From Candidatus Kapaibacterium sp. (GTDB taxonomy: Bacteria; Bacteroidota; Ignavibacteria; Kapaibacteriales; UBA2268), in assembly GCA_963665665.1 (NCBI GenBank), contig OY762428.1, positions 4,864,001 through 4,928,000 of the forward strand: a stretch of 64,000 nucleotides of DNA. The letters are read 5' to 3'. How positions within the stretch are numbered: the first letter of the stretch is position 1; every line of letters starts with the position of its first letter. Of the stretch, positions 7,835-62,553 are shown piece by piece. The position numbers and the translations under genes are program-made. The notes beneath the pieces were generated by a model. The model had not been told where the DNA came from. It saw nothing but the letters and a program-made list of their open reading frames with translations, and searched no databases.

Positions 7835-8374
7835 TTATATTTTCATTGAAACGGTTTTAATATCCCGAATGCTGTTTTCTGATACCTCGATACCAAGTTC
7901 TTTCCTTACAAGCTTCTTTGCTCTGAACAGGCGCAGCTTTACGTTAGATAGCGAAGTATTCATAATATTTGCAATTTCCTTTTGGCTAAAGCCCTGAATA
8001 TAGAACAATATCAGTGTTTCCCTGTATTTAGAATCCAAATGGTTTATTGCCTCCATCATCAGGTTTATATCGCACCTGATTTCCGGGCTGACTTCCTGCA
8101 TTTTCAGATTGTCCAAAACGCTTTGGTCAGTGGCATCAAACCTTGCAAGCCTGCTCCTGTTCTTGTTGTAAAGCCGGTAGGCTATAGTAAACAGATAGCT
8201 GAGGAAAGCCTGTTTGTTCTTCAGTCTGTCAAATCCCTCGAAAGCTGCCAGCACGGTTGAAGCTGTAAGGTCTTTCGCCTTATCGCGGCTACCTGTAATT
8301 ACAATGGCGAACCTTTCCAGCCTCTCCTTCAGCGGCATGTAGAGTTCAAGGAATTCATCATTCTTGTTTTTCAA
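7835..8374 (-). CDS. ECF RNA polymerase sigma factor
   Basis: AKDLTASTVLAAF, AFLSYLFTIAYR, region 4 FSQKEIANIMNTSLSNVKLRLFRAKK; TTG start. Confidence 0.9.
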   Translation of the reverse strand: MKNKNDEFLELYMPLKERLERFAIVITGSRDKAKDLTASTVLAAFEGFDRLKNKQAFLSYLFTIAYRLYNKNRSRLARFDATDQSVLDNLKMQEVSPEIRCDINLMMEAINHLDSKYRETLILFYIQGFSQKEIANIMNTSLSNVKLRLFRAKKLVRKELGIEVSENSIRDIKTVSMKI

Positions 8375-8452: not shown

Positions 8453-8663
8453 AGAATTGCAAAATTATTTTTTTGGCCCCGGTGTTTGGCAATGATACTT
8501 AAGGAACAATATACATGTAATAATAATAATATCTAATATCTTGTAAAAAAATTGTATCTGAATCACAGCCACAGGAAGCAGGATGATTAACAACAATCAC
8601 GGGAATAAAGCCGGAGTAAGCTATCGGAAAGGATTCCAAAGCCGGCAGCGGGTTAATTACCCT

Positions 8664-9130
8664 CATCCGACAGAAATCCTGTGCTAAATGATCATTGAGT
8701 TTGCCGGGCATAGTAAACTTCAATGTTTGTATATCCTATATTCACCCGGAAAAAACAAATACCGGCTCTTCCGTACCAAAACATCAATTGAAAATAGGGA
8801 TCGACCGTTCTAATAGAACGAATTTCTATATCAAAAAAGTGAAACTCTGTGTTTTCTGAGTAGAATTTTACCTGAAAAAGTGTCTCGGAAGGCACGAGGG
8901 AACGCTCGGAAAGCATGGGGGAACGCTCGGAAAGCATGAGGGAATGCTCGGAAAGGACGAGGGAATGCTCGGAAGGCTCAGGGGAATACTCGGAAAGGAC
9001 GAGGGAACGCTCGGAAAGGACGGGGGAACGCTCGGAAAGGACGAGGGAATGCTCGGAAAGGACGGGGGAACGCTCGGAAAGGACGGGGGAACGCTCGGAA
9101 GGCTCAGGGGAATACTATTATTGCACAAAA
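8664..9130 (+). repeat. Dispersed 21-bp-periodic element, copy A (leader + 11 x 21-bp array + TTATTGCACAAAA)
   Basis: Array 8884-9114, consensus CTCGGAAAGGACGRGGGAAYG; leader 8664-8895 colinear with the reverse complement of 39924-40155. Confidence 0.9.
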
Positions 9131-39347: not shown

Positions 39348-39563
39348 AATATTTTAAAGATATTATCACTTCCACGGTAGGATAAATATAAATTTTCCGG
39401 GTCTTTCAATAATTTTATTTGGCTATATCAGTAGACGTTTGTAATTGAATTTCAGCGGAACGTATCATTTTCCTGCATAAATTTGGAGCAATAGTTAATA
39501 AATTATATAATTCATTGATATTACATATCTTAATACAGCTGCTACACCATCCGGAATTGATTT

Positions 39564-40155
39564 TTTGTGCAATAAATCCTTTGATTTGAGCTTTCCGAGC
39601 GTTCCCCCATGCTTTCCGAGCGTTCCCCCGAGCCTGCCGAGCGTTCCCCCGAGCTTCCTGAGCGTTCCCCCGAGCTTTCCGAGCATTCCCTCATGCTTTC
39701 CGAGCGTTCACCCGAGCTTTCCGAGCGTTCACCCGAGCTTTCCGAGCATTCCCTCATGCTTTCCGAGCATTCCCCCCAGCTTTCCGAGCGTTCCCCCGAG
39801 CTTTCCGAGCGTTCCCTCATGCTTTCCGAGCGTTCACCCGAGCTTTCCGAGTATTCTCCCGAGCCTGATTATCGCTGATATATGCCGTCTTAGCGTTGGT
39901 TAGTGCCGTCTTAGCGTTGGTTTGTGCTTTCAAAAACACTTTTCCAGGTAAAATTTTACTAAGATTACACAGAATTTTACTCTTTTGATAAGAAATTTCG
40001 TTCTATTGATCCGTTCGATCCATTTTATCAATTAATATTTTGATCTGATAATGCATCTGTTTGCTTTTGCCGGGTGATTGTTTTATTTATAAATATTGAA
40101 GTTTGCTTTGCCCGGCAATGTTGATAATCCATCGGCACATAATTTCCATCGGATG
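39564..40155 (-). repeat. Dispersed 21-bp-periodic element, copy B (leader + 3 variant units + 13 x 21-bp array + TTATTGCACAAAA)
   Basis: Array 39590-39862 (plus-strand GCTTTCCGAGCGTTCCCCCGA), variant units 39863-39925, leader homologous to 8664-8895. Confidence 0.9.
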
Positions 40156-58195: not shown

Positions 58196-58338
58196 TGATC
58201 AGGAATTATATGGCAAATTTGAAAAATTGGGAATTTACAACTTTTATTATCATAAAAGCATCTGATTTGTTATATTTGCCCTGTTATTAATACATTTAAT
58301 CTGAAGCAGAAAACTTTTATTTTTTAAGGGAGAGCCAC

Positions 58339-59463
58339 ATGTATTTTTCAGGCACAATAGAGATTGACCCCTCGCAATTGACTCATATCAAAAGAGTAAA
58401 GCCTACAAAACTTTTTGGAAAACTTTTGAACGCATTGACATTCGGTTCGATGAGCGATAAGCAGGAACACGAAACTTTTACTGCTATATCAATCCTTCAG
58501 CAAATGAACATGGGATTACGTTCTCTGAATATTCAAAATGTAATTCGCCTTGCTGTGGACGATTACGATTTTTACCTTGACGAAAAAGGTGTTGATGATG
58601 ATATGAGCCAGGCAATGTTTGAATTCAAAGCCAAAATTGACCCGCTGGAATCGGAAGTCTTTGATTCAATATATCTTGTGCTGGAACATCTTGAAGACAA
58701 CCTGAAGTATGTTCTGGAAATTTCTATTGACAGGAAACATAAGGTAGGGGAATACCCCATACAAATTTCTGTAAACGGTGTGCTTTCGGATTTCAAACGC
58801 CTGGAAGGTGAATCTGCCGAGGATCTGGAAAAACGCCTTGAACCGGTTTTCAGCGACCAGCAGACTTATGATACTTATATTACAAAGCACTGGGCTGTTT
58901 TCGAGCGTTTCCTTGATAATCTTTCCCTTGCTATCAGAAAAGTGATGAAAGTTGATGATGTTATCAAAAAATCCAACAAACAGATGGTAAGGCCAAAACA
59001 ACCTGTCAGGGATGTTAATGACATGCAAAGGCATACCGGCGGGCAGCCCGTTTATCATGGATATTACGGTTTCCAGGATTATTTCTTCTACTCGATGCTT
59101 TGGTCCATGAGCATGCACAGCCACGGAATGTATGTTAATAATGTGACTATAGTTGATGACAACGGCCAGAACGTTATGGATGTGGGCGAGGAAGGCTTCA
59201 ATGCCGGGGAAACAGATACATTGAATCCCGAAGCTGATTTCGTTGCCCCCGAGGGTGGCGATATTGATTATTACGGTGACAATCAGTTCGAATCCGAGAT
59301 CAGCGATGCTGATGTACTCAGCTCCCAAACCGGCGGCAGCGATATGGTGGACGACAGCGGATGGATGGATTCAGGGGATGCAGGCGGCGATTCCGCTTCG
59401 TGTTCTTCCTGTTCATCATGCAGTTCCTGCTCATCCTGCGGCGGTTGCGGCGGTTGCAATTAA
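58339..59463 (+). CDS. Hypothetical protein with acidic region and (CSS)4(CGG)2C tail
   Basis: GGGGAG RBS; C-terminus SASCSSCSSCSSCSSCGGCGGCN. Confidence 0.8.
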   Translation: MYFSGTIEIDPSQLTHIKRVKPTKLFGKLLNALTFGSMSDKQEHETFTAISILQQMNMGLRSLNIQNVIRLAVDDYDFYLDEKGVDDDMSQAMFEFKAKIDPLESEVFDSIYLVLEHLEDNLKYVLEISIDRKHKVGEYPIQISVNGVLSDFKRLEGESAEDLEKRLEPVFSDQQTYDTYITKHWAVFERFLDNLSLAIRKVMKVDDVIKKSNKQMVRPKQPVRDVNDMQRHTGGQPVYHGYYGFQDYFFYSMLWSMSMHSHGMYVNNVTIVDDNGQNVMDVGEEGFNAGETDTLNPEADFVAPEGGDIDYYGDNQFESEISDADVLSSQTGGSDMVDDSGWMDSGDAGGDSASCSSCSSCSSCSSCGGCGGCN

Positions 59464-59480
59464 TAAAATATGAATACATT

Positions 59481-59520
59481 AGGGGAAGGCTTATACATGT
59501 TAAAACAGCTGGCCTTCCCC
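59481..59520 (+). terminator. Hairpin after the 58339 gene
   Basis: ggggaaggc...gccttcccc. Confidence 0.5.
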
Positions 59521-59570
59521 AGACTTATTCCCAATCTTTGATTTCACCTGTCCCACGCCGGCGCATGGAT

Positions 59571-59828
59571 TGTCATACTGAGCGAAGCGAAGTATCCATT
59601 CTTTATACATTATCTGCAAAGTAAATGTGGACTTCCTCTGTTGCAAGAGCAGCGAAATCATATAAAAAAGCTCCGTAGGAGCGGAATTTTTGTAGATAAT
59701 ATTTGCATAATCTTCATTCAAAGCTCCGTAGGAGCGACATCTGAAATGTAAATGCCGCCCCGACGGGGCTGTTATTCATCCCGGGATCGATTTACTACAA
59801 AAATGTCGCGGCTACGCCGCTATCCTTC
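59571..59828. repeat. Composite REP cluster (GTCAT family + GCTCCGTAGGAGC/GCCCCGACGGGGC/GCGGCTACGCCGC)
   Basis: tgtcatactgagcgaagcgaagtatcc, then palindromes homologous to 19986-20105. Confidence 0.8.
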
Positions 59829-59886
59829 ATTCCGATGAATAGGGGGATGACGGATAGGAATATCTTCCTGGGACAGATTTGCCATT

Positions 59887-60075
59887 ATTTACCACAAAAT
59901 ATCAATCATATATCCCACAATTCTGATTTTTTATATCAAAATAGTGATCCTATTGCTGAGAAAATCAATTCTTTATCTCATAATATTGATTCTTACTTTC
60001 AAAATTGTGAATCAATATCATAAAAATCTGATCATTTGAACTATAATTCCGATTCTTTATTTCAAAATAATAAAT
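59887..60075. repeat. Degenerate AT-rich 21-bp tandem array (9 units)
   Basis: Units such as ttttatatcaaaatagtgatc, ctttatctcataatattgatt, ctttatttcaaaataataaat in exact 21-nt register. Confidence 0.8.
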
Positions 60076-60662
60076 ACACGGATTATTTGAATGAAGCCTA
60101 ATCCTGTAAATGATTTGATGTGTGCAATTGGTTAGTATCGGATAATCGGGTTAATATTTAGTAAGTGTAATCTATTATATATTTTATTTATCAGAGTATA
60201 TAATCATCATAAATTTATATTTTATCGGTATATTTTATTAAAATTTTAATCTATTTTATGCTTGATATAGTTTATCTAACTAAATTCCTTATTTATATTA
60301 TTGATTAATTTATGTATATGATAAAATAATGAGTTATGCTAATTGTATATTATATTTGTCCTATTATATAATAAAGTGTTATAATTTATTAGGCTAATCT
60401 GTTTTTTACTAAATAAGGATGCTTATTTAATATGAAATGAAATGGAATTAATATTATGAGTTAATTATTTACTAATATGAATATGTTATTTAATATTTTT
60501 GATTGATTATTTATGGTTTTTGGTTAGGGAATTACTAAATTATTTAATATAAATATTAATTGTTATTATTTTAATTGTTGTATAAGTAGATTATTTCTTT
60601 GAACTTATAATTTAATTACTTATATTAATATTAGTAATCATATTATATATCGGGGAGATATA

Positions 60663-61577
60663 ATGTCTGTAATACTAAACAATAATTTCTCGCAGGATAC
60701 TCATGATATCAGGGCTGAAAGGCTTAGGAAAATCCAGGATAATCATGATTTTATTCGTGATGAGCTTCATGCGCCGGAGGAGATTTGTATTTGGGCTGAG
60801 GACTGCTATGATATATTCATGGATAAGATTAGTTCGTCGGCGGTGGACACTGCGCAGTGGCATTCACAGACCTTTTCGGTGCAGAACATGCTTAGGGAGC
60901 TGACGGAATGTTATCAGATTGTGCGGGCGTTGGGTATTCCGATTTACGCGGATGATCAGAAGCATCTGAAAGATTTTGATTTTGGTCTGAGGTTCCCAAA
61001 GTCGCGCCTGGAGATGCTTTCGAGGGCCGAGCTGATTATTGAAGTGCACAACCGGCACGTTCAGGAGGGGCTGCCGAAAACTATTCCGCAGCTGATGATC
61101 GACAGGCTGGCTGCGGCGATTGCCGAAACGGAGCTGGCGATGGAGGAACAGGAGCAGAAAAAGAAGCGCGCGATGCACAGCACTGCGGAGCTGAAGGAGC
61201 TGATGAAGGCCGACGAGTGGCTGCTGACCTTGCTGAAGGGCTGGTGGCGCGGGGTGATGGGCAAGGATTCGGTGCTGATACAGAAAATCGGGATGGTGAA
61301 CCTGAAAAGGCGCGGAAACCCGCACAGGCCCGAGGCTCCGGCGGATTTTGACTATGATGCCGCGCAGGAAGTTTTTTCCTGGCCGGAGGTGGAGGGCGCG
61401 ACAAGCTACGAGATTGTGACGCGGAGCGCAAAAAAGGGTAAAAAATGGCGGAAAGCCTGGCGGGGACGCGTTCTGAGCGCTATGCTGCCGCCACCGGAGA
61501 GTCCGTCCGAGTACGCCGTGCGCGCGCGCAACCATAATGGCTACGGGCTGATAAGCGCTGTGGTGGCGGTGGGATAG
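60663..61577 (+). CDS. Hypothetical protein: helical N-terminal region + C-terminal fibronectin type III-like domain
   Basis: GGGGAG RBS; PEAPADF..FSWPEVEGATSYEI..YAVRARNHNGYG Fn3 pattern; no signal peptide. Confidence 0.8.
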   Translation: MSVILNNNFSQDTHDIRAERLRKIQDNHDFIRDELHAPEEICIWAEDCYDIFMDKISSSAVDTAQWHSQTFSVQNMLRELTECYQIVRALGIPIYADDQKHLKDFDFGLRFPKSRLEMLSRAELIIEVHNRHVQEGLPKTIPQLMIDRLAAAIAETELAMEEQEQKKKRAMHSTAELKELMKADEWLLTLLKGWWRGVMGKDSVLIQKIGMVNLKRRGNPHRPEAPADFDYDAAQEVFSWPEVEGATSYEIVTRSAKKGKKWRKAWRGRVLSAMLPPPESPSEYAVRARNHNGYGLISAVVAVG

Positions 61578-61738
61578 GCGGAAGGGGAAATATGTGTCGG
61601 TATTTTTAAATAATAACGAAGAAGTTGCACCTGAATATTGTTAGTTCTCAAATGAAAAATAAAAATCCCGTTTTAAAAAAACGGGAAATTAAAAATTGAC
61701 ATCAAATATTGATCTTCAGCCCTGAATGAACTTTGAAA

Positions 61739-62173
61739 TCATACTTTTGCTTCAACCAGTTCATTTATTGAACTTACAATAATTCCTTTATCCACACTGC
61801 CGTTCAGAGCAACAAACACTGTGTCATCGCCTGCTATAGTACCGACAACCCCGGGTAGTTCTTTGGTATCGATACTCACCGCCAGGCTGCTGGCCGAGCC
61901 GGGTTTGGTCCGAATAACATATACAAGTGACGAAAACATTTTTTCATTCAGGCCTACATGCTCATCGGAACTATTGGGAAAATAATATTTATATTTTCCT
62001 GAATTTGTCATTATGCGGGCTGTTTTTAGGTCTTTAAGATCTCTTGAAATGGTTGCCTGGGTTGCTTTAATTCCTAACTCTTTCAATTCCGTATTCAGAT
62101 GTTCCTGATTGTAAATATCTTTCGAAAGAATTAGTTTCCTGATTATTCCCTGTCTTTTTCTTTTGTTTTTCAT
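61739..62173 (-). CDS. argR: Arginine repressor
   Basis: NQEHL, ATQATISRDLKDL, TKPGSA, GTIAGDDTVFV. Confidence 0.93.
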   Translation of the reverse strand: MKNKRKRQGIIRKLILSKDIYNQEHLNTELKELGIKATQATISRDLKDLKTARIMTNSGKYKYYFPNSSDEHVGLNEKMFSSLVYVIRTKPGSASSLAVSIDTKELPGVVGTIAGDDTVFVALNGSVDKGIIVSSINELVEAKV

Positions 62174-62181
62174 ACTCTCAT

Positions 62182-62220
62182 GATGTATAAACATACAAAC
62201 TCTCTGCAAAAATATCCAAT
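62182..62220. promoter_or_regulatory. Tandem ARG boxes upstream of argR
   Basis: Cores TGTATAAACATACA (62184-62197) and TGCAAAAATATCCA (62205-62218), i.e. 18-bp boxes 3 bp apart. Confidence 0.65.
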
Positions 62221-62553
62221 TATTATTAATTTTCAAAAAAATTTGTTTAATAATTGTAATTCAGTGTTATTGAAATCACGTATACCCTCACCAATAAACT
62301 TTAGAAGCGGATAATGCAGCATTCTGTAGGGTATCTACACTGCGGCTTCTACTCTGCTTGTAACAGAACTTTCAAATTTCATTTCAATTCGCTCATGAAT
62401 TTTGTGTCTCATAAATAAAACATACGATAATGGTTTAAACCTGATATACAGTTAATTTCAGGTAATAATGCAGGAAAATAATCTCTGCCTTTTTTGATTT
62501 GTACCCATTTTACTATTTTTGAAAATGATTAATTGATAATTGTAGAGAATAGA

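Follow-up and report, generated by a model that had tools for sequence, protein, structure and literature searches.

21-bp repeat arrays paired with a PQLLE-type gene family point to an undescribed gene-control or DNA-organising module in Candidatus Kapaibacterium

Locus organisation

The window analysed here is a stretch of 64,000 nucleotides (nt) from Candidatus Kapaibacterium sp. (assembly GCA_963665665.1, contig OY762428.1, positions 4,864,001 to 4,928,000), part of a closed genome of 5.46 Mb with a G+C content (GC) of 38.6%. Towards its end lies c1, a gene whose predicted product joins a helical domain to a fibronectin type III (Fn3) domain. The gene is preceded by 520 nt of 13–18% GC and, further upstream, by a degenerate array of 21-bp repeats (Table 1; coordinates are those of the window unless given as genome positions). 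We found 21-bp arrays upstream of the gene at most of the family loci examined, in other genomes as well as in this one, together with copies of array and spacer that lack the gene. As far as sequence comparison goes, array, gene and gene-less copies point to an undescribed gene-control or DNA-organising module.

That array, AT-rich spacer and gene form a unit, as an initial annotation of the sequence had supposed, is borne out by a repeated block from about 59544 to 61584, which occurs six times in the genome at 93–96% identity, and by the arrays upstream of homologues described below. The annotation had placed a 21-mer array about 590 bp upstream of the gene, and a 21-nt periodic stretch does lie there: its autocorrelation is 0.52, 0.54 and 0.59 at lags of 21, 42 and 63 nt (maximum of 0.45 in 500 shuffles), and it is too degenerate for a call by Tandem Repeats Finder (TRF). 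The ultra-AT core between array and gene has a lag-21 autocorrelation of 0.485 (shuffle mean 0.373, standard deviation 0.020). Searching 58301–62300 against the genome with blastn gave about 100 short matches to 59540–59840, at the left end of the block.

The gene c1 is real and under purifying selection. Among five full-length copies, the ratio of nonsynonymous to synonymous diversity (pN/pS) is 0.09–0.26, with pS at 0.08–0.13, and the plus frame is therefore the selected gene; an antisense open reading frame (ORF) at 60864..61535 was considered and set aside as a by-product of high GC. Upstream of the gene, diversity (0.08–0.16) resembles pS, and the gene is more conserved. The nine matches to c1 in the genome comprise the five full-length copies (95–100% identity), a truncated copy carrying an internal deletion, two paralogues, d1 and d2, with 39–40% identity to c1 and two Fn3 domains each, and one insignificant match (E = 0.63).

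Table 1 Features of the c1 block and of elements A and B in the window
Feature	Position	Strand	Basis or remark
Left end of the 2-kb repeat	59544..59860	.	Mosaic of short interspersed repeats resembling repetitive extragenic palindromes (REP-like), found at many other genome sites
Degenerate AT-rich 21-bp array, about 9–10 units, roughly ATTCTTTATNTCAAAATANTG	59884..60085	+	Autocorrelation; all six copies
Ultra-AT core, 13–18% GC, residual 21-nt periodicity	60140..60662	.	One of 29 in the genome
Conserved 22-nt motif GTTAGATRAACTATATCAAGSN	60259..60280	- (opposite to the gene)	Common to all ultra-AT cores
Shine-Dalgarno-like GGGGAG, 5 nt before the ATG	60652..60657	+	Sequence; invariant in all six copies
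Gene c1, 304 aa	60663..61577	+	ORF; PQLLE-like helical domain (residues 1–215) and one Fn3 (220–304)
Right boundary of the 2-kb repeat	61578..61584	.	6–7 nt past the stop; blast ends at 61583/61584, alignment diverges beyond
Element A: GC-rich 21-bp array (8884–9100) and AT-rich tail (to about 8716)	8690..9125	-	TRF; d1 alignment
Element B: GC-rich array 39588–39864, short array 39883–39927, AT-rich tail	39560..40080	+	TRF; d1 alignment

Recurrence of the array–gene pairing

Rather than lacking nearby 21-bp arrays, a possibility raised with the initial annotation, homologues of c1 carry them at most loci. TRF found arrays with a period of 21 nt or a multiple of it (21n), of 4–19 units, upstream of the gene at 14 of 16 family loci drawn from other genomes, metagenomes and the paralogues; the two misses were the decayed c1 copy and a locus cut at 309 nt. 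For d1 the array is of the type of elements A and B and lies at -429..-187, and for d2 an array of a different type lies at -966..-630. When lags of 8–40 were compared upstream of each gene with an intact N terminus and at least 300 nt of upstream sequence, the best was 21 in 15 of 15 rows, three of which are near-duplicates. As controls, 79 ORFs of 150 aa or longer were taken from these loci; the periodicity threshold, an excess of 0.3, was reached by only two, both family genes, and by 0 of the 77 others. The base rate in the genome is 55 of 2495 ORFs (2.2%) with a 21n array within 1 kb upstream.

The family arrays end 95–630 nt before the ATG (at the foreign loci gene starts are approximate, and several of those loci are near-duplicates). 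Their unit sequence varies by locus, no reading frame is consistently open, and the units share no motif or common dyad across loci. Upstream of distant PQLLE genes from other classes, whose relation to c1 is set out below, the best period was 21, 42 or 63 at 14 of 18 loci, often as a 42-bp super-period. These comparisons indicate that the pairing of array and gene recurs across genomes, with the 21-bp period kept and the unit sequence free, and that the array upstream of c1 is the decayed counterpart of the homologues' arrays. Our literature searches found no publication of the array–PQLLE pairing and nothing relevant on tandem repeats in Kapabacteria.

The protein and its family

An AlphaFold2 (AF2) model of the c1 product is confident: its predicted local distance difference test (pLDDT) score is 95.9 over the full length and 97.2 when the N-terminal domain (N-domain) is modelled by itself. 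The model shows a helical bundle, two of whose helices are about 56 residues long, and after it the Fn3 domain. The Fn3 part has a structural match with a Z of 12.2 and a root-mean-square deviation of 1.9 Å over 83 residues, and a profile search matched Fn3 chains in the PDB with E values down to 2.5e-18. The Pfam fn3 family (PF00041) is matched by 12 of 47 family members, not by c1 itself; a Pfam scan of the c1 protein matched no family. On the model, the C-terminal domain is a member of the Fn3 beta-sandwich fold. Fold searches with the whole model returned Fn3 matches only. With the N-domain alone, Foldseek gave nothing at E ≤ 0.001, and the best VIA Z, 9.1, was to YscO/FliJ-type hairpins and to chemoreceptor and BAR bundles, below the meaningful level for helical bundles; ESM Atlas matches were to unnamed clusters only, with DUF6261 as a weak lead. 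A homodimer prediction scored 0.00, which weighs neither way, and a PADLOC scan returned nothing. Structure prediction and Foldseek, both proposed with the initial annotation, have in this way yielded a confident model and Fn3 matches and left the N-domain alone without a specific match.

The helical domain does have relatives at the level of profiles. NCBIfam NF052641, 'PQLLE family protein', is an uncharacterised family of about 215 aa. Its hidden Markov model (HMM) was matched by 22 of the 47 family members, all below the cut-off of 80 bits (best, 38.4 bits; d1, 34; d2, 22.5), and not by c1, so HMM scoring does not place the family in NF052641. Aligning a profile of 50 family sequences to a profile of six PQLLE proteins over the cut-off with hhalign gave a probability of 96.8% and an E value of 3e-10 over 199 columns, and the helical domain (residues about 28–215) is, by this profile comparison, homologous to the PQLLE family. 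The PQLLE...LGIV motif of that family aligns to a D.R....IGMVN motif in the c1 family, which has in addition a conserved N-terminal segment of 27 residues (with invariant N7, D12, R17 and R20) and one to several C-terminal Fn3 domains. Literature searches on PQLLE as a protein family found nothing relevant. The initial annotation called c1 an orphan helical and Fn3 gene; the AF2 model and fold matches support the helical and Fn3 parts, and the orphan label fails, given six copies, paralogues, homologues and the PQLLE homology.

Full-length relatives occur in 'Candidatus Kapaibacterium' metagenome-assembled genomes (MAGs), in four other genomes of the order and in metagenomes; in searches of 5.8 and 1.8 billion proteins, the best non-self matches were about 40% identical. 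Three relatives are single chromosomal genes amid housekeeping genes, and no neighbour gene is conserved around homologues or PQLLE genes. A few genomes elsewhere hold several copies of the superfamily (nine in one, G026, and about ten matches in another, G020). We considered a phage structural protein with Ig/Fn3 decoration and rejected it: PHROG matches are restricted to residues ~215–300, the Fn3 domain, a scan of viral contigs confirmed 0 of 49 candidates as family members, and the neighbours are housekeeping genes.

Two PQLLE loci have neighbours that are single cases and show no pattern. One bona fide PQLLE gene lies directly upstream of cas1-cas2 (G427:C1:4211144-4214776, L056), and another (L054) adjoins an MmeI-type restriction-modification gene.

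Gene-less arrays and ultra-AT cores

Arrays of this kind are abundant in the genome. TRF reported a period of 21, 42, 63 or 84 at 266 of 527 loci; a period of 21 accounts for 166, and no period outside the multiples of 21 for more than 30. The 21n arrays of at least 80 bp total 47.9 kb in 118 clusters and often stand as adjacent pairs of two unit families, of which there are at least seven, set 6–13 mismatches apart. Among 174 rows of period 21, the d1 type accounts for 27 and the d2 type for 35. One array unit has 292 occurrences in this genome and no more than one in any of the 60 other members of the order compared, mostly draft MAGs whose repeats may collapse in assembly.

Elements A and B belong to this set. 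The array, spacer, ribosome-binding site and ATG of d1 align with both over their full length at 73% mean column identity, and 21 array-plus-tail elements of the A/B type occur in the genome, one of them in front of d1 and the type as a whole upstream of varied genes. The tail motif of element B has 0 mismatches (genome position 4903967). With one narrow search pattern, no A/B-type array was found within 17 kb of the six c copies; a variant A/B-type array lies 190 nt upstream of d1. The initial annotation had speculatively proposed A and B as gene-less derivatives of the c1 element; on this alignment they are gene-less copies of the d1-type upstream module, derivatives as proposed, of d1 rather than of a c1 copy. 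After element A comes a 74-aa ORF (8499–8723, minus strand) whose first residues are, by eye only, faintly like the family N terminus, and next a gene read from its translation as an extracytoplasmic function (ECF)-type sigma factor (7835–8374, minus strand).

The ultra-AT cores form a second set. There are 30 regions with GC of at most 0.17 over 400 nt, and 29 of these have 21-nt periodicity. An nhmmer profile built from 16 other cores picked out each of the six gene-linked ones and none of 14 shuffles. The 22-nt motif has 30 matches with up to four substitutions, 29 of them within ultra-AT DNA; with up to two mismatches it has 29 matches here and 0–2 in each of the 60 other genomes of the order. 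When this motif sets the orientation, every core is built alike, with a sharp edge at one side, some 500 nt of core and a 21-bp array after it. The 23 gene-less cores have a second, inverted array in the place held by the gene in the other six, and such array-flanked cores (for example, genome positions 1260051-1260550) form large imperfect palindromes.

One possible explanation for these numbers is a selfish, autonomous mobile unit. Its gene product would move or copy DNA that bears the arrays, and arrays and AT cores without the gene would be non-autonomous derivatives that resemble miniature inverted-repeat transposable elements (MITEs). The six gene copies stand beside 23 cores without the gene and about 20 such elements of the A/B type, which is in keeping with this, as are the near-absence of the arrays from the 60 other genomes, the inverted orientation in which arrays flank general AT cores and the genomes with several superfamily copies. 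However, neither library nor fold searches of the protein returned a family or fold of nucleases, recombinases or transposases, neither target-site duplications nor defined termini were seen, the copies end inside REP-like mosaics, the relatives named above are single genes amid housekeeping genes, and repeat collapse in draft MAGs would by itself lower the counts elsewhere. We consider a mobile unit very unlikely.

Base skews of the cores bear on another explanation. In the orientation of the gene, the six gene-linked cores have more G than C (by 0.16–0.33) and more T than A (by 0.12–0.17), whereas most of the 23 gene-less cores skew the opposite way, three of the 23 also having more G than C, weakly. 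The skew of the gene-linked cores may have been left by transcription passing through them. Such read-through would fit an RNA-level element, in which transcription of the array yields a long leader or constant-length small RNAs that act on mRNA or protein, and transcription of constant-size repeats has been proposed (PMC8161180). Against this, Rfam gave no match, the units share no motif or dyad across loci, and the six cores are one evolutionary observation. An RNA-level element is distinctly unlikely in our view. A promoter and terminator scan gave no promoters above the level of shuffles.

The copies and their surroundings have some further features. An insertion sequence (IS) of 1.44 kb, whose two transposase frames overlap, is present in the genome in 18 full-length copies (98.6–100% identity); one lies at c3 just upstream of the ribosome-binding site (genome positions 4627630-4629073) and one at c5 after about codon 4 (164764-166213). 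The gene c1 (plus strand) and c2 (genome positions 4943216-4944127, minus strand) are inverted repeats 17.6 kb apart and could mediate inversion between them; the intervening segment starts with argR and a LOG-family (lysine-decarboxylase-like) gene. Directly preceding the repeat is a 374-aa ORF (58339–59463, plus strand) with no Pfam family and a Cys/Ser/Gly tail (…SCSSCSSCSSCSSCGGCGGCN).

Composition of the gene and its cause

The initial annotation described c1 as standing on a monotonic AT-to-GC gradient. All seven of its G+C counts per 60-nt line were exact on recount (60241, 9; 60541, 6; 60661, 20; 60901, 29; 61141, 35; 61441, 38; 61501, 39), and past 61560 the lines drop to 26, 16 and 19, the abrupt return to AT-rich DNA that it had put after about 61590. 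Over the 15 lines of the ORF (20, 27, 23, 34, 29, 27, 35, 37, 35, 39, 31, 35, 37, 38 and 39) the trend is strong (Spearman rho 0.83, p = 1e-4), although dips among the lines mean that it is not strictly monotonic. The ramp is made of two components. GC at third codon positions (GC3) rises from 0.37 in codons 1–30 to 0.97 in codons 171–200, in line with the G/C-ending later codons first reported, and then lies at 0.6–0.77; GC at second positions (GC2) increases only in the last third, the Fn3 part, from 0.23 to 0.63. Conserved N-terminal residues (N, F, I, D and K) shift the first 100 nt of the gene AT-ward.

Compared with the 2495 ORFs of this genome that are 250 aa or longer (mean GC3 0.376, standard deviation 0.069), the family copies, with GC3 of 0.64–0.70, take ranks 1–4, 6, 9 and 10, and their GC3 slopes are 0.095–0.118 per 100 codons, the 99.9th percentile of the genome being 0.113. 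Seven of the 13 regions of the genome with 600-bp GC of at least 0.56 are family genes. An assembly chimera, which the initial annotation had named as a way to produce the ramp, is excluded because five further copies in the closed genome have it too and because an independent study supplies contigs that run from the AT core into the gene at this locus (60565–61126, and 61128–61583 to the gene end; these contigs are broken up by the repeat, and none covers the entire stretch). Homologues elsewhere, proposed as sharing the ramp, have flat GC near their own genome's value; the ramp is therefore a trait of this lineage and not of the module.

Substitution spectra between the copies, a comparison also suggested at the outset, proved to be opposite in the coding and non-coding parts. 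In the adjacent non-coding DNA, 69 of 157 G or C sites (S) had changed to A or T (W), that is 44%, and 43 of 626 W sites to S (7%), for an equilibrium GC (GC*) of 0.13–0.15 and an observed GC of 0.16 in the core and 0.27 in the array. At synonymous third positions of the gene the figures were 17 of 169 (10%; p = 3e-12) and 17 of 93 (18%; p = 9e-4), for a GC* of 0.65 that equals the observed value. Taken separately, the array had 33 of 71 S sites changed to W and a GC* of 0.15, and the core a GC* of 0.13. By thirds of the gene, GC* was 0.32, 0.66 and 0.87 (first versus last, p = 0.056; all sites, small counts).

With a non-coding GC* of 0.13–0.15, mutation in this 38.6%-GC genome has a strong underlying bias towards AT, and the ultra-AT spacer has the look of unconstrained sequence that has come to the mutational equilibrium of the genome. 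In the gene, G/C-ending codons are under active maintenance and are not a fading import. The ramp is a junction between non-coding DNA at AT equilibrium and coding DNA whose synonymous sites are held G-ending. The single polarised mutational or copying process imagined in the initial annotation does not accommodate opposite spectra within one repeat both of whose parts undergo conversion.

A relic of horizontal transfer, in which a GC-rich donor gene is ameliorating and the ramp is a chimeric junction or the result of faster 5′ decay, would account for a gene GC far above that of the genome and for the share of family genes among its GC-richest regions. Other GC-rich genes look prophage-like (genome positions 1737833-1748466 and 3130883-3137600; terminase-, portal- and capsid-like, as named from reading of their translations), and in the first third of c1 S-to-W changes outnumber W-to-S changes by 13 to 6. 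However, the synonymous sites as a whole are at their own equilibrium, loss of G or C is about four times rarer than in adjacent non-coding DNA of equal age, the protein searches returned no close GC-rich relative, and the bias is common to two paralogue lineages that are 40% identical. Moreover, the codons of the family are G-ending (third-position G 0.49, C 0.18, T 0.23 and A 0.10), whereas in the prophage-like genes (GC 0.50–0.56, GC3 0.58–0.66) C is at least as common as G. A transfer relic is highly improbable.

GC-biased gene conversion among the six copies, with the gradient arising from the starts of conversion tracts, finds some footing in the frequent exchange among them: all 10 of 10 possible partitions occur, and 33 of 74 adjacent informative pairs are incompatible. 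The gene has low-diversity patches (nucleotide diversity (pi) of 0.006–0.008 at 60920 and 61220), and biased conversion has been proposed for bacteria (PMC4450053). Conversion acts in both compartments, which weakens bias in it as the cause, since the upstream non-coding half is converted too and yet has 13–16% GC and an AT-ward spectrum. Symmetric conversion bias does not predict the excess of G over C at third positions, and a similarly high GC3 is seen in d1 and d2, of which there are just the two diverged copies. We rate biased conversion as very improbable.

Translational selection was rejected as the cause of the G-ending bias, because EF-Tu and EF-G (GC3 of 0.39 and 0.43) have the opposite codon preference to c1, EF-Tu favouring T- and A-ending codons. 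We infer that the bias reflects a gene-specific, strand-asymmetric force on the transcript or on transcription, and neither a transfer relic nor symmetric biased gene conversion.

Discussion

Our overall explanation, to which we give a probability of roughly 60%, is a conserved module made up of a non-coding 21-bp array, an AT-rich spacer and a gene for a PQLLE-type helical protein with C-terminal Fn3. In the c1 copy, array and spacer have decayed, with enlargement into the 520-nt ultra-AT core. The array would probably serve as a helically phased binding platform at the DNA level, upstream of the promoter, and control the gene; a multimeric factor might occupy one face of the helix, by analogy with iterons and LytTR-type operators. 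The unit type differs from paralogue to paralogue, so that specificity seems to be cis-encoded, and the encoded protein is its simplest source. As the candidate binder, the protein is a tentative and rather doubtful choice.

Several observations count against this explanation. The N-domain is acidic, with a median net charge of -6 and a negative charge in 38 of 47 members, and the net charge is likewise negative in five of six PQLLE proteins. This is unlike most DNA binders and argues against direct binding of the array by the protein, which also lacks a known DNA-binding fold, so that a separate factor or an RNA-level role is possible. The array in the c1 copy is degenerate and evolves at a neutral-like rate (pi 0.13–0.16, with the low GC* given above), and it may therefore no longer function at c1. 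The six copies descend from one ancestor and are therefore one observation. In a divergent branch of the family (G158, G142 and G007b) the lag-21 excess is at most 0.12, with no clear array, and in G007a an excess of 0.20 lies at -1250. As for composition, the direction of each substitution was set by the majority of five copies, between which sequence is exchanged, and each third of the gene yields few counts.

A wider scheme would have PQLLE-type proteins polymerise on the constant-size 21-bp repeats of bacteria, each paralogue on its own unit; the c, d1 and d2 pairs would have seeded more than 100 chromosomal arrays (about 48 kb), giving a paralogue-specific chromosome-organising system or a self-spreading one, and the extreme G-ending codon usage would help to set expression of the gene apart from that of the remaining genome. 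We regard that scheme as unlikely.

Tandem repeats of constant 20–21-nt size and variable sequence are reported from many bacteria, without function or partner (PMC8161180). Their tie to one gene superfamily makes the matter testable: candidate proteins are at hand, as are arrays both cognate and non-cognate and copies that naturally lack the gene. The genome is an unusually suitable test bed, being closed, with three paralogue–array pairs and dozens of solo arrays traceable to those pairs. The decayed AT core is a built-in neutral reference for mutation bias (equilibrium about 13–15% GC), and the gene is a clean case of synonymous sites far both from mutational equilibrium and from the codons of EF-Tu and EF-G. 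The latter bears on how selection or transcription-linked processes shape codon usage.

Comparison with known systems

In iteron arrays of theta plasmids and in LytTR-type operators (spacing about 21 bp), direct repeats of about 17–22 bp stand near an AT-rich stretch and the gene of the presumed binding protein, and helical phasing puts the sites on one face of the DNA. The c1 protein differs in being a coiled-coil bundle with Fn3, without a Rep (winged-helix) or LytTR domain, and the arrays here differ in being chromosomal, in dozens per genome and of up to 19–33 units. An iteron replicon has an adjacent winged-helix Rep; no Pfam or NCBIfam Rep family was matched here, and the fold is a helical bundle with Fn3.

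Gene transfer agents (GTAs) offer a parallel for composition, their gene set being held GC-richer than the host by selection and not by recent transfer (PMC7360931). In comparison, the enrichment here consists chiefly of G-ending synonymous codons and rises along the gene. The scan of viral contigs and the gene neighbourhoods of the relatives revealed no link of the family to GTAs or prophages.

The closest likeness is to the bacterial tandem repeats of constant 20–21-nt size, variable sequence and enigmatic function described by Subirana and Messeguer (PMC8161180), who suggested a protein polymerising on them. The arrays of this genome have the fixed period, unrelated units and non-coding nature of that class, and they also agree with the repeats of the main text in occurring as several families per genome and in a 21-nt period equal to two helical turns. 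In that main text, the words 'upstream', 'promoter' and 'intergenic' occur 0 times and no link to neighbouring genes is drawn. In contrast to what is described there, the arrays here are paired with one gene superfamily across genomes, and those without a gene are traceable to modules that lie upstream of the paralogues.

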